Virus record (IMG/VR): IMGVR_UViG_2778261535_000012
Location: 1-36,784 of that record
DNA length: 36,784 bases
Strand: one strand, 5' to 3'
From: a virus
Taxonomy: Duplodnaviria > Heunggongvirae > Uroviricota > Caudoviricetes
Shown here: positions 1 through 5,479 of the stretch, piece after piece
Layout of the letters: every line of letters begins with the position of its first letter
How positions within the stretch are numbered: the first letter of the stretch is position 1
Notes under the pieces: model-generated
Database searches by the model: none
Told to the model about the DNA's origin: nothing
The model's input: only the letters and a program-made list of their open reading frames with translations
Program-made: the position numbers and the translations under genes

Positions 1-999
1 ACCTACAGAAAAATCAAAGTCAGTATGGGTAGTAGAGCCTGCCGGTGTATCTGGTGCTGTAGTCCATAACTTAATCGTATTATCTATATTCTGTACCGCT
101 ATTCCCTGATGACCCAGCCTGTCCTCAGGAAGCATAAAATCAGAAGATGTGTTTTTAATTTTTGAATCAGCAGAATATTTATTCCAGACAGAAACAGTCG
201 TAGGGTTTCCATCTATTTCTGTATTGTGATTGGAATAATAAGCTCTGCTTACAGGATCATATGCAAAAGTTTGCAATGTTCTTATTCGTCCGCGACCATT
301 AGCAATTGGTATAAACCGTATAGCAGAATTAGCTTCATGCCCAATGGCATTAACGTCCCATGCAGGTCGCTTGCTTGTAACTAGTTCGCCATTAACAGGA
401 ATGACTTTTCCGCCAACCAACCATTTCCCGTTAATATAGGTATTCCTGAAAAATGTTCTGGAGGTAAAATAAGTTTTACCGCGCATATCAACAACCATGG
501 ATGTAACATCATCTTCCAGTTGTTCAAATGCCTGCGTATCATCCGCAATGCCATCACCTTTTGCTCCCCAGCCGCGTGGATCTGTTTCATCACGCCATCG
601 TGCAATCTGCAATTCTGGATATTTTTTAGCACCATCCGGGTCTTCTAATTGCTGCCGTAGCTGGTCAGGGTCGTACTTCAGCACATTAGGAAAATTGAAC
701 TGCTGAGCACCATACGCATCATAAACAGCCATAGAATGACCCTGCACAGTAACGAACTTGGCAATCTGTCCGTTATATACCGGATATCCAGCAGCGTTAA
801 TGATGATTGGTTGCGAAACAGGAACGTGAGAGCCGTCTTCGTTTTCCACATAAACCTGAATCTGGTTTTCAGGATTTACAGGGTCAGTGTCAATTTTTCC
901 GATATAAATTTTGCCATTGGCTACGGCTTTAAAAGAACGCGCCATAGTGAATAGTTGCGATGGCATACTCACTACAACATTGGCTGTAATGTCTGTCAT
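1..999 (-). CDS. Tailspike protein, N-terminal part (333 codons, open to window edge)
   Basis: Hand translation from ATG at 999 (GGAG 8 nt upstream) gives [34 protein letters not shown]..., which matches the P22-family tailspike head-binding domain from memory. No in-frame stop down to position 1. The downstream part diverges and contains a [12 protein letters not shown] beta-helix-type motif. Confidence 0.85.
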
Positions 1000-1099
1000 T
1001 TAATTTGCTCCAGATGCAAAGAATCGCCGCAGCATGGCCACGGTGAATTTTGGGCATAAAAAAACCCAGCCGAAGCTGGGTCGTTGCGTTGGTTATCTG

Positions 1100-2035
1100 T
1101 CAGTAATTATGTACTGAAGGAGGTAATTCTTTATTCTTAAGTCTCATCCATGCGGAAAGATTCGTTGGTCCGTCTGGCTCATTGATATCAACATCTCGTG
1201 TGTGATTAATTAAAACGTCTCTCGCTATATCTATAATACGGGAGAACTCATAACCGCAGTCATGACATCTGCCGGAATAGTTCGATTGAATTTGTTTCAG
1301 CGCCGGATACAGTTCGCGGAATAATGCCTGTGAGCGGTTGGCATAATCCCATAACCATACAAGGCTGTTTGCTTCTTTTGCAGAAAGCTCGTTGGTTTTC
1401 TTCTCTTGTTTGCCAATGAACTCACCTTCAAGTGGAACTCGAGCTGCAAGTGATAGTGCTTCGGTAAACTGCTCCTCACTGATTTCTTTGTACGAACATC
1501 CAAAATGGGATTTTAGTGACGACCACATGGTGATCATCGCCTTAGCCTGTTTTTCTTTTGGTAGAGACTGACCGCGACTCATGACGAGTTGTTTAATGGC
1601 TTCCTGCTGTTCAGTGGTGATTTTACCCGGCAACGCCTTTTTAGCTTTGCGTGGGTTAACTACATGGCCTTTAGTCCAGTAGTCATGCAGCACGCTAAAG
1701 CATTCATCCTGGTACTGAATCAGTTTATCACGGATGTCAGCACGAACTTTCTCAGGGTTGATGCTGAACAGCCATCCATTTAACTTCTTCAAAGGAAGGC
1801 AGAGTAGCTTACGAAGCTTCCCATCAGCGGCAACCATGTTCATATGAACACAGTTGAATTTGCTAATCTGCTTCATGAGTTTTGTTTGCTGCGTTGACCA
1901 GCTCATTCCAAGGTTTTCAACGATTGGCTTCATCGCAACATATGCAACTCCGGCAGCCATGGCGGTGATAATTTGCTGACCGTTGAATGGTACGTAAGAG
2001 GTGTTCACTGCTTCTAAAATTGCTATACTATTCAT
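1100..2035 (-). CDS. ant: Antirepressor Ant
   Basis: Translation [22 protein letters not shown]... resembles P22 Ant; position next to arc/mnt. Start chosen at the internal Met (ATG 2035) rather than the ORF-track start at 2101. Confidence 0.75.
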
Positions 2036-2097
2036 GTTGGTTTTTCTCCACGGATTTACTGACAACCGAAGCCCTGACTGTTCCCGCAGTTGGGGCT

Positions 2098-2301
2098 TCA
2101 ACTTTCTGCTCTATCAGTTATATCTTTCCCTTCGTATACTTCACCTATATTGCTAATGCTGGCAGAACATCCAAGATGCTTGTATCTTATGATGTCCAAC
2201 ACGCAGTCACTACACAGCATCCGACCTGTTTCTTTAGAGTAAATGTATGTTTGATCAGCGTCTGATTCGCTAATGCCGCAGAAACAACATTCTTTACTCA
2301 T
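2098..2301 (-). CDS. Small Cys-rich protein (zinc-ribbon-like, CxC...CxxC), unknown function
   Basis: 67-aa ORF; its ATG overlaps the arc-like stop (ATGA), which suggests translational coupling. Cysteine pairs CCFC and CSDC. Confidence 0.5.
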
Positions 2302-2438
2302 ACTGTTATCCCCTCTCTTTTCAGGCTGTCCAACACCCGTTTAATTACTTCTGCGCTAAATGAGCGACACTCTTCCTTTGCTTTCTCTTCAAGGATTTTT
2401 TCTAACTTCTCTGGCATACGCAGTGTTTTTACCTTCAT
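2298..2438 (-). CDS. arc: Arc-like ribbon-helix-helix repressor
   Basis: Hand translation [46 protein letters not shown] (46 aa, below the ORF-track cutoff); RHH-like N-terminus; divergent from mnt as in P22 immI. Confidence 0.6.
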   Translation of the reverse strand: MKVKTLRMPEKLEKILEEKAKEECRSFSAEVIKRVLDSLKREGITV

Positions 2439-2440
2439 TG

Positions 2441-2543
2441 CATCCTCCGTTGTATGTGGTACGCATACATAGTATTTAGGTACGCATTGATAGTCAATAG
2501 ATACCTACATATCCTGTGGTAAAAAATTATTCAGGATGCGCCG
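2441..2543. promoter_or_regulatory. Divergent promoter/operator region between arc-ant and mnt operons
   Basis: Direct repeats GGTACGCAT at 2458-2466 and 2479-2487 (21 bp apart) and partially palindromic AGGTA...TACCT at 2478-2506 between two divergently transcribed RHH repressor genes. Confidence 0.4.
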
Positions 2544-2795
2544 ATGTCTGATCGTAAGTACAAAAACCCTCAAGTGAATCTGAGGCTTCCTGTAGAGATA
2601 AAGGAACGTCTTATTGAGCTGGCTGAGGCTAATTCTCGTTCATTAAATGCTGAGATGGTAGCAGCACTTGAGGCATGGACTGAAAAAAATAAACATATTC
2701 AAGCACTAGATCTTGCAACTATAGCATCGCGGTTGATAGAGCTTGAGCATGAGGTTGAGAAGTTAAAATGTATGCATGGCAACAGTGAAAAATGA
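2544..2795 (+). CDS. mnt: Mnt-like RHH repressor (maintenance of lysogeny)
   Basis: 83 aa, same length as P22 Mnt; N-terminal RHH pattern (NLRLPVEIKERL...ANSRSLNAEMV); divergent from arc. Confidence 0.7.
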   Translation: MSDRKYKNPQVNLRLPVEIKERLIELAEANSRSLNAEMVAALEAWTEKNKHIQALDLATIASRLIELEHEVEKLKCMHGNSEK

Positions 2796-3106
2796 AACGT
2801 ATCGCTATTTTGTTAATATTGTTCTTCTCTACAATAGTTTGCGCCAAACAAAAATCAGATAATGGCGATCTTAAAGGCCTGCAAGAACTCATGATAACTT
2901 CGAAATTTGCTGGCATGTGCGGCACAATCAAACAAATGGCAACATTTCAAGAATCAACAAAAATGCCTGGCGGAGATGAGTTCTTACAGCGTTTTCTGAC
3001 CACAGAGCAAGCAAGACTAGGAATGAATCCACAGGAGTTTCTTGAAACATGCCAGAAGTCAATTTCAGCTTATACCAATTATTACAATCTAACTTCTGAT
3101 AAATAA
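2792..3106 (+). CDS. Exported protein with N-terminal signal peptide, unknown function (moron)
   Basis: MKRIAILLILFFSTIVCAKQ signal-peptide-like N-terminus; ATG overlaps mnt stop (ATGA). Confidence 0.6.
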   Translation: MKRIAILLILFFSTIVCAKQKSDNGDLKGLQELMITSKFAGMCGTIKQMATFQESTKMPGGDEFLQRFLTTEQARLGMNPQEFLETCQKSISAYTNYYNLTSDK

Positions 3107-3131: not shown

Positions 3132-3617
3132 ATGAAAAAATCACTATTAATTATCCCGCTTCTGCTGGCTGGATGCGCAAAAGTAAGTGACTACCAAGCA
3201 AGTTGCGAACAACGCTATCCAAAGCTTAGTGATATGGCTAATTGCCTTGATGCCAGCGTGAAGAACGACTCACGCATGGCATCAGCACCAACACCTAAGC
3301 TGTATGTCCTTGCTGCGAAGATGCTCGGGCAAGGTGTCGATGAAGGCAAGATAAGTGACGCACAGGCAAGACTTGAGCTTCAGAATCTTTACGTTCAATT
3401 ACAAAGCCAAGAACAAGCCCAACAAATAGCGCAAAGCCAAGCATTCCAGCAGGCTTTATTGAATTATCAGGCTGTAAACACAATGCAAGCGATCGAGCAA
3501 AAAGCGCGCCAGCCTGTTATAACTCAACCTTACCCAACACGCGTTGACACATATACAAACTGCAATTCAGGATTTGGAAACACGGTAACATGCAACAGTA
3601 GCAGTAATATCAGGTAG
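3132..3617 (+). CDS. Lipoprotein with Q-rich C-terminal region, unknown function (moron)
   Basis: MKKSLLIIPLLLAGCAK has a lipobox (LAGC); occupies the position of sieA in P22 between mnt and gene 16. Confidence 0.65.
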   Translation: MKKSLLIIPLLLAGCAKVSDYQASCEQRYPKLSDMANCLDASVKNDSRMASAPTPKLYVLAAKMLGQGVDEGKISDAQARLELQNLYVQLQSQEQAQQIAQSQAFQQALLNYQAVNTMQAIEQKARQPVITQPYPTRVDTYTNCNSGFGNTVTCNSSSNIR

Positions 3618-3631
3618 TTATATCTTATCTT

Positions 3632-5479
3632 TTATTGCTGTTCTGCTGTAATTTGGCTTGAAAGTATAGGGCGTATCGCATTTGCAGCATTATTTAGCGC
3701 TCTTTCATAGGCTGGTGTTCCTGCTTTGGTGTTTGCCAAACGTAAGAGAGCATTCCTTGCTGCTTTGGACTCATACAAGCGCATCATTGCACCGAAACCA
3801 GCCTCAAGCCCCATTGATACGCCAAGAGTCGCAGTTGCGCCAATCGTCCTTATCCTGTTGGCTTGCGATTGCCCCGTCTGAGTTACTACATTTGCGGTGT
3901 CTGACCTTGCTGTTTGCTGTAGAACTTCATGAAGAGAATCAAGCTCTTTCATGTGCTTTCCAGAAAAAATAGTGTTGTAAATTTCACCACCTGACTGAGA
4001 TTTCAGCTTATTAACTTCAGTGATGAACTTGGCTGGAGAGTCACCGGCCTTTTCCGCTATTTTGCTGACGTAAGCTGCACGCATAGCATCTTTCCCTTTA
4101 TCATCCAATGCGCTCCAGATTCGTTTCACGTCAGATGGTTTTCTGCTTAATACAACGATATTTATAAGTTCAGGACTGGCTTCACTGCTTGCCTTGTTGA
4201 GCTTGTTAGCAATGCTTTTATTAAGCACCTTATTATAAACGTTTGCATAATCGGAATTTGCTTTAAGGTATTTTGCTGCGTCTGACGCACCGAGGTTTTT
4301 TGCAACTGCGTTACGAAGGTCTTTTGACATTGCATTCTCTACCATATTGGTAGCTGCTTTTGCCTGGTTGGGGAAGACCATAGCATCTCCCTGAACATTA
4401 GATCTAAATGCTGTTCTGTGCTGACGCAATAGATCAAACGTAACATCCAAATCAGTTGCAGGGTTTGCTAATTCTTCACGTAGGTTACGCAAGGATGTAA
4501 GCAGGCTTTGATTGGCTGAAGTCCCAAGCCGTTCCTGTCTTGCGATCGCTGTATTCAGAGCATTCATGGTATTTGTGGTATCAACTGCGGCATTACCCAT
4601 TTTATTGGTGACGTCATTGATAACAGCGCCAGCAGCATCCTTCCGCCCCCTTAACGTGGTGGTCAGAGATTTCACCACATCATCAGGGTTGTACTCACCA
4701 AAACGGTCAAAATAATTGCTTACCAGCTTACTACGCGTTGCATATTGCTCCGCTCGCTTTGAGCCTGTCCCGAGCAAAGCCCCCTCGGCATCCTGAGTAA
4801 TGCCGCGAGTGAAGGCATTATTCGGCGGGATAACATCAGATGTCATTGGTGTCACGCCCATCGATTCTGATGTGGCAATTTTCTTCACCACTTCTGGTGC
4901 AATATCACCTTTTATAGCCGTTATTCCACGCCCTATTCCCTTTGCTGCTGCGGAAAGAACCCCCTGAGCGGCAAGGTTAACTCCGGCATTTTTGGCTGCA
5001 TTTTGTGCGAAATCGCCTTTCTGATTTGCGGCCTCTGCCAGTGATCCAATAGCCATGCTTCCTGCCGTTCCAACTCCTGGAACTAAATACCCGCCAATTG
5101 TTTCTCCAGCTTGCGCATAAGGGTCTGTCGGTCGATCGACTGGACGATAGACATCATCCAATACTTTTGGCCCACCAAGCCCCTGACTGATTGCATTAAT
5201 CAGACTTGCGCCACCCTGCAATACGTCAAATGGTATGTTTACCAGACCACGACCAGCCTGTTCTGCAATTTGCCCTGCACTTTGACCACCAGTGAGCCAA
5301 TCGCCAGCTTGTTGCATCAATGATGGTTCTTCCCGTGTTGGTGCATTATTGGCCTGATTAACTGTTTGTTGCTGAACAGCCTGACCAGCAAAATACTCAT
5401 CAATGGCGGTGCCAATATCTTCGGTGCTCGTACCATCAGGAAAGGTAAATGTCTTACCGTTTGCAGTTACTTTCATCAT
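3632..5479 (-). CDS. DNA ejection/injection protein (P22 gp16-like)
   Basis: 615 aa (P22 gp16 about 609 aa); conserved position at the end of the virion module; Ala/Gly-rich. Confidence 0.75.

Follow-up and report, generated by a model that had tools for sequence, protein, structure and literature searches.

[quoted passage not shown] The promoter Pant is repressed by Mnt in the lysogen and by Arc in lytic growth (PMC12111858); arc and ant are also transcribed from a late promoter, and sar blocks the translation of ant (PMC12111858; PMC2629481). In P22 and epsilon34 alike the arc stop codon abuts the sar terminator, so a preliminary description of the present locus was correct in setting it against P22 on this point. 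The immI region of phage P1 (c4 antisense RNA–icd–ant1/2) provides a further comparison, since there too an antisense RNA controls the operon, in which a 73-codon gene, icd, lies upstream of the antirepressor gene.

Here we describe an immI operon that shares with P22 and epsilon34 the divergent promoters Pant and Pmnt, Arc and Mnt, a full-length sar and a P22-type Ant, but differs from both in having a 204-bp gene, referred to below as X, in line between arc and the sar terminator. Our literature searches found nothing on a gene between arc and ant, on an insertion slot at this position or on phage proteins resembling the ZBD of ClpX.

A P22-type immI module with an additional gene

The window (the whole stretch analysed here, 36,784 nucleotides of IMG/VR record IMGVR_UViG_2778261535_000012) represents a P22-like prophage in reverse orientation, with the tailspike gene at 1-1000 (-) followed by ant. 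The latter (1100..2035, (-)) is the third gene of its operon, encodes an antirepressor of 311 aa (Pfam P22_AR_N, E 9.8e-45; P22_AR_C, E 8.9e-29) and has identical CDS coordinates in the RefSeq annotation of strain PK8217. The sar antisense RNA (2036..2103, (+)) covers the ant ribosome-binding site and matches Rfam RF00262 over its full length (1-68; 95.6 bits, E 2.9e-20, gathering score 43 bits); the window matches epsilon34 at 100% identity throughout 1900-2105, a stretch that holds both sar, which is annotated in that phage, and the 5′ end of ant. The sar terminator hairpin occupies 2068..2099 (+), and the Psar promoter can be placed at 2001..2029 (+) by identity with the epsilon34 annotation (L006 1602-1630), a coordinate carried over by offset.

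On the other side of X, the first gene of the Pant operon is an arc-like gene (2298..2438, (-)) for a ribbon-helix-helix repressor of 46 aa (Pfam Arc, E 3.7e-8); for strain PK8217, which is 100% identical, RefSeq names the product 'Arc family DNA-binding protein'. A divergent mnt-like repressor gene of 83 aa (2544..2795, (+); Pfam Arc, E 2.9e-10) is likewise annotated in RefSeq. Between the two, a consensus scan places a Pant-like sigma-70 promoter, TTGACT-17-TACTAT, ahead of arc-X-ant at 2469..2497 (-), where its position agrees with Pant/arcO of epsilon34, and a Pmnt-like promoter face to face with it at 2487..2515 (+). Arc and Mnt repressors thus flank face-to-face Pant and Pmnt as in P22, the promoters being consensus matches only. 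The same kind of scan found no promoter-like or terminator-like site in the arc-X interval. On all tested features the surrounding module is a standard P22-type immI, save that arc does not directly precede sar and ant.

Around the overlapping Pant and Pmnt, the arc-mnt intergenic region (2439-2543) has GGTACGCAT as a direct repeat together with an inverted repeat, AGGTA...TACCT; these are presumably Arc/Mnt operators unlike those of P22. Downstream of mnt, where CUS-3 and UTI89 have a second mnt, a YafO toxin gene and hkcB, the window has instead two ORFs of 104 aa and 161 aa at 2792-3106 (+) and 3132-3617 (+). Both have hydrophobic, signal-peptide-like N-termini, the 161-aa ORF has a lipobox-like LLAGC, and neither matches a Pfam or PADLOC family.

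Gene X (2098..2301, (-)) begins with ATG, has 67 codons and encodes a C4 zinc-ribbon protein with the motif CCFC...CSDC. Its start codon (2301-2299) overlaps the TGA of the arc-like gene (2300-2298) in an ATGA, and its own TGA (2098-2100), 62 nt upstream of the ATG of ant, falls within the 3′ arm of the hairpin that terminates sar. The preliminary description had read this stretch as a 67-aa zinc-ribbon-like ORF, coupled through ATGA to the arc-like gene and preceding ant, and the analysis confirms it in every particular. X is not an N-terminal extension of ant, because the two are in different frames with stop codons between them.

X is a genuine gene

X is almost certainly a real protein-coding gene, as judged from the ORF translation, from homologues at the same locus and from frame-specific conservation. 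The length of the ORF alone is weak evidence, because open stretches of 55 and 47 codons also occur on the opposite strand. A conservation search in P22-like prophages, which the preliminary description had proposed, identified a homologue of 68 aa (P0014/P0019), ~35% identical to X, at the identical place in Salmonella prophages. It sits between a 52-aa arc and ant, has the same kind of 4-nt start/stop overlap (GTGA or ATGA) and ends, like X, with a TGA in the sar stem.

The first 27 nt of the two types are nearly the same (26/27 identical), and beyond them the nucleotide identity is only ~43%, with synonymous sites saturated (pS 0.79) and a pN of 0.52. Residues 10 to the end nevertheless align as protein with a score of 57-58 against a shuffled mean of 21 ± 4 (z ~8.4), a level reached by 0/5000 shuffles. 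In the other five frames similarity is absent from two forward and two reverse frames and borderline in one reverse frame, where 55/2000 shuffles reach the real score. Alignments are shallow (5-20 sequences from two to four lineages); within that range C6, F7, C8, G9, C30 and C33 are invariant in 20 sequences, and the Cys ligands are kept across four diverged lineages. For the Salmonella type only 17 differences were available; they give a dN/dS of ~1, which is uninformative, and purifying selection is not seen at this short range. The segment gives no RNA-structure signal (z -0.30), and an RNA-structure role was rejected on this basis.

At least 1000 deposited contigs carry the exact X protein under the name 'hypothetical protein', and it matches phrog_7150 from end to end (E 3.4e-50; residues 1-67 on profile positions 1-67 of 67). 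Overall, the evidence supports X as an extra, genuine and translationally coupled Cys4 zinc-ribbon gene within the immI operon, one that P22 does not have.

A polymorphic cargo slot between arc and sar

The position of X, between arc and sar, is very probably a polymorphic slot, and X one of several exchangeable cargo genes. In two E. coli Lederbergviruses, phiv205-1 and vB_EcoP-611R6, the match to the window goes no further than the X stop codon. Each has an annotated 'hypothetical' gene of its own between arc and ant, of 57 aa (L068:1999-2172) and 73 aa (L069:1997-2218), respectively; both genes overlap arc by 4 nt and both are unrelated to X.

A census of the slot was made by searching one collection, IMG/VR, with one junction pattern, the conserved arc 3′ end followed by RTGA. 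It returned 93 loci with at least eight ORF families that are translated from the RTGA and share their junctions; since some contigs were retrieved twice, locus counts per family are approximate. All intact cargo ORFs share one stop codon, the TGA that precedes AGCCCCAACTGC; at loci with an identified ant start, this TGA lies 62-63 nt ahead of ant. A frameshifted O157-type copy terminates early. Besides the 67-aa E. coli type of the window, the slot families measure 57, 63, 68, 73, 74, 80 and 89 aa (IMG/VR loci L075, L079, L080, L086 and others). The 68-aa family is the Salmonella homologue of X, and the 63-aa family (X3), with MKNRRCCFCGCS...ICDSCVTDIV, matches phrog_7150 (E 5.7e-8). The 57-aa protein is basic (phrog_17642), the 73-aa protein belongs with phrog_11805, and the 80-aa protein is without a strong family match. 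The 89-aa protein (phrog_27312) has a hydrophobic N-terminal stretch which, read by eye, suggests a membrane protein. ClpX-like zinc ribbons make up four of the eight families; as the other four are not zinc ribbons, the slot by itself implies no link to ClpX.

The 5′ junction of the slot (2298..2324, (-)) comprises the last nine arc codons (LKREGITV*) with the GAGAGGGG Shine-Dalgarno sequence and the ATGA, and it is near-identical before eight cargo families; in the window copy a single base is different, a synonymous change (ACA vs ACG). Three arc types share this C-terminal ...DSLKREG(I/V)(T/V)V* junction and with it the ribosome-binding site for the cargo. In P22, by contrast, arc ends in ...ESFKKEGRIGA* and the slot is empty. 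The 3′ junction is the sar terminator hairpin that overlaps the X stop codon, and the homology of the window to P22 and epsilon34 starts at AAAGTTGAAGCCCC, just before the TGA used by X. X itself occurs with at least three arc alleles and at least three ant leader or N-terminal types. The several arc and ant alleles found with X, the varied cargo and the empty slot of P22 together argue for exchangeable cargo rather than a co-evolving part of the Arc/Ant/sar circuit.

Many related immI regions carry a gene for a ClpP-like serine protease of 178 aa directly downstream of mnt (L008:2967-3503 (-); also L009-L012 and L014, and phages phiv205-1, E212, EC.P3 and PhiR12), which matches Pfam CLP_protease and the NCBIfam ClpP-related head maturation protease (E 2.5e-13). 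To our knowledge, P22-like phages do not need a prohead protease. By approximate counts the gene accompanies the Salmonella type of X at 6/7 loci, the E. coli type at 24/57 and the 57-aa cargo at 12/17. An association specific to X was rejected: the window and many X loci lack the gene, which is also common at loci with the unrelated 57-aa cargo.

Similarity of X to the ClpX zinc-binding ribbon

X is probably ClpX-ZBD-like in fold or by homology, a resemblance that the preliminary description had missed. A core at about residues 4-41 resembles the ClpX N-domain and is followed by an acidic tail that is predicted to be disordered. The cysteines are arranged as C-x2-C ... C-x2-C with a CxFCG first knuckle, as in the ClpX ZBD, and the motif common to both proteins reads C-x-F-C-G ... 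(I/L)-C-x-x-C-(V/I)-helix; the loop between the knuckles has 21 residues in X vs 18 in ClpX. Compared with the ClpX ZBD (PF06689 zf-C4_ClpX; PDB 2ds5 and 6vfs, residues 1-45), X is a standalone protein of 67 aa that is not fused to an AAA+ module, and it has an extra Cys beside the first ligand in addition to the disordered tail. Its acidic character (pI 4.6, net charge -5) fits binding to protein rather than to nucleic acid.

X itself matches no Pfam family at E<=1 and no NCBIfam or PADLOC family. Among its relatives, zf-C4_ClpX is the sole Pfam match for P0014 (E 0.086) and for P0019 (E 0.75), the latter named 'ClpX-type ZB domain-containing protein' in UniRef, and it is the top and mostly the only family at E<=1 for four slot proteins (E 0.086, 0.75, 0.2 and 0.0015). 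These scores of 10.2-18.9 bits lie below the Pfam gathering threshold of 27 bits; as a control, residues 1-61 of E. coli ClpX score 77.6 bits. The sole NCBIfam matches fall on positions ~5-60 of ClpX models (E 0.03-0.17). All scores of the X family are below curated thresholds, and because the Pfam threshold is not passed, X is not filed as a member of the ClpX ZBD family. The Salmonella and X3 relatives match phrog_7150 with E 1.8e-9 to 5.7e-8, a family without assigned function or description.

In profile comparisons, hhalign places both knuckles onto residues 14-42 of E. coli ClpX with a probability of 31%, and a profile of five sequences, run against 177,635 PDB sequences, has ClpX (6vfs_E, residues 1-45) as its top match at E 0.031. 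Against residues 11-51 of E. coli ClpX, between 8 and 78 of 5000 shuffles reach the real score. AlphaFold2 models, from the single sequence and from a 4-sequence alignment, have a mean pLDDT of 55-56, with 62-71 in the core and <50 in the tail. With these low-confidence models Foldseek gave no match below E 0.09 in PDB and BFVD; the fold search returned many generic treble clefs, and the predicted models are consistent with a treble clef, no more.

Distribution, annotation and variants of X

X has a narrow distribution, in prophages of E. coli and Salmonella. Apart from close E. coli copies, a word-indexed search over 5.8 billion proteins and a HMMER search of 1.84 billion representatives recovered a single diverged relative. 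In the HMMER search, 12 of the 13 matches were spurious multi-stretch alignments to eukaryotic repeat proteins and were discarded, leaving P0014 as the only real relative. A scan of GTDB species-representative genomes confirmed nothing, a metagenome scan gave only near-identical copies of the E. coli type, and tblastn of X and its Salmonella homologue against 50,697 phage records had CUS-3 as sole match.

The gene has largely escaped annotation in complete genomes, with no CDS at X in the RefSeq annotation of ~60 sampled complete E. coli genomes. In the GenBank record of CUS-3 (CP000711), arc and X are both covered by a 'bsq2 boundary sequence' (3277-3758) and neither is annotated. A comparison from 2008 stated that CUS-3 lacks arc (PMC2629481); this statement is outdated, as a gene of the Arc family with 46 aa is present.

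About 300 of the 373 complete E. coli genomes with the segment, mainly of the O157:H7 lineage, share one +T frameshift (MSKECCFLRH*). In Sp6 of O157:H7 Sakai (L004 3060-4715), the mnt-arc-X-ant cassette, with X frameshifted, is a moron in the tail cluster of a lambda-like prophage, between the genes for minor tail protein L and tail assembly protein K; in an O145 copy (L005), ant is split by an IS3 element. In two natural variants, P0025 and P0033, the presumed first zinc ligand is replaced (C5Y; MSKEYCFCG), so that either the adjacent C6 substitutes as ligand or the alleles are defective. The only fused homologue is an arc-X fusion of 112 aa (P0001) on a Logan assembly contig of 2564 bp; it implies a frameshift in the ATGA junction region, whether from an error in sequencing or from natural variation.

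Possible roles of X

Small phage proteins that modulate AAA+ proteases are well known: lambda CIII acts against FtsH and T4 PinA against Lon. These proteins and the anti-adaptors IraD, IraM and IraP, which transiently protect a regulator from an ATP-dependent protease at a developmental decision, are functional analogues only and have no homology to X (IraD and RssB are covered in PMC7226468). [quoted passage not shown]

In the mechanism that we propose, arc, X and ant would be co-transcribed from Pant and X would be translated by coupling to arc. Judging by the regulation of P22 immI, the protein would appear in a burst when the DNA enters the cell, and possibly once more from late read-through transcripts, at roughly the same times as Arc. 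Its resemblance in fold suggests that X may act by protein-protein binding as a free ZBD decoy that would either compete with the ClpX N-domain for adaptors or for substrates that depend on the ZBD, or form heterodimers with it; a protein of the phage or of the host might thereby escape ClpXP for a time. This decoy mechanism is possible, and we put it forward tentatively. A broader version, in which the arc-sar interval is a dedicated, recombination-ready slot for early-burst effectors, laid out like an acr-aca operon with strong promoter, autorepressor and variable cargo, and X and its three ribbon relatives are free ClpX N-domain mimics that block adaptor- or ZBD-dependent proteolysis by ClpXP upon infection, is speculative and unlikely to hold as a whole.

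Several other readings of X have to be weighed. Anti-CRISPR genes are found beside autorepressor genes in the acr-aca arrangement, and by analogy the layout of the X operon would fit an architecture of this counter-defence type. X could accordingly be early-burst cargo with a target unrelated to ClpXP, serving counter-defence or host takeover through a generic treble-clef ribbon, an account that we consider somewhat unlikely. It would explain the hypervariability of the slot, where eight small families alternate within junctions that do not vary, and a ribbon that diverges fast (35% identity between flanks that are 90-100% identical, with a dN/dS near 1 in Salmonella), and it agrees with the generic treble clefs of the fold search. 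X is also coupled to an autorepressor under a strong early promoter, Arc repressing its own Pant (PMC12111858). Against this, ClpX is the only recurring similarity, and neither Pfam nor PHROGs assigns a known anti-defence family; the lack of a PADLOC match counts for little, as that library holds models of defence and not of anti-defence. The preliminary description had instead suggested an added regulator or an anti-antirepressor component, and a part of immI that binds Ant, Arc, Mnt or C2 and tunes the antirepressor would account for a gene between arc and ant that is kept in step with Arc by translational coupling. P1 icd, also a small ORF upstream of ant, is annotated as required for ant expression. 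The suggestion has not fared well, however: the circuit runs with an empty slot in P22 and epsilon34, at least eight ORF families, among them a putative membrane protein, share the position, and X is found with several different arc alleles and with three N-terminal or leader types of ant. Nor does the P1 gene offer a close parallel. icd overlaps the start of ant1 and is annotated as the C4 RNA target, whereas X is located ahead of the sar target and, with a gap of 62 nt to ant and no overlap, has no coupling of the icd type; homology to Icd was rejected (hhalign probability 0.09%, and Icd is without paired CxxC motifs). We regard a regulatory role of X within immI as improbable.

Binding of X to nucleic acid is less probable again. 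With 67 aa and C-x2-C-x21-C-x2-C, X resembles small phage zinc-finger activators, and it adjoins the antisense-RNA control region, so that an Ogr/Delta-like regulator or an RNA-binder acting on the ant leader or sar might be imagined. Yet no Ogr_Delta or other DNA-binding zinc-finger family of Pfam is matched even at E<=10, the protein carries a net negative charge, and its relatives, with different tails and charges, share the ribbon only; this makes such a role very unlikely. That the segment is non-coding, a recombination 'boundary sequence', spacer or RNA leader with a fortuitous ORF, is extremely improbable. The bsq2 feature of CUS-3, the missing CDS in the sampled RefSeq genomes, the frameshift of the O157 lineage and the dN/dS found in Salmonella would all suit a non-coding segment. 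Protein similarity specific to one frame at such low nucleotide identity, Cys ligands kept in four diverged lineages, cargo ORFs that run from RTGA to one and the same TGA, and the flat RNA-structure score all speak against it, as does the fact that both GenBank submitters and PHROGs call the product a protein.

Perspectives

What is new here is an immI operon with a plug-in cargo slot, together with a standalone phage protein that is like the ClpX N-domain. In many prophages of E. coli and Salmonella the arc-sar junction serves as a plug-in site for small genes, to which it supplies the ribosome-binding site, the start and the stop. The proteins encoded in the slot form a small, well-defined set of candidate early effectors, and four of them resemble the domain on which ClpX docks substrates and adaptors. 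If the decoy idea is true, the antirepressor module would be linked to the control of host proteolysis, and if the reading of these proteins as ClpX mimics is true, they would represent a new class of phage proteins that inhibit a host AAA+ protease.
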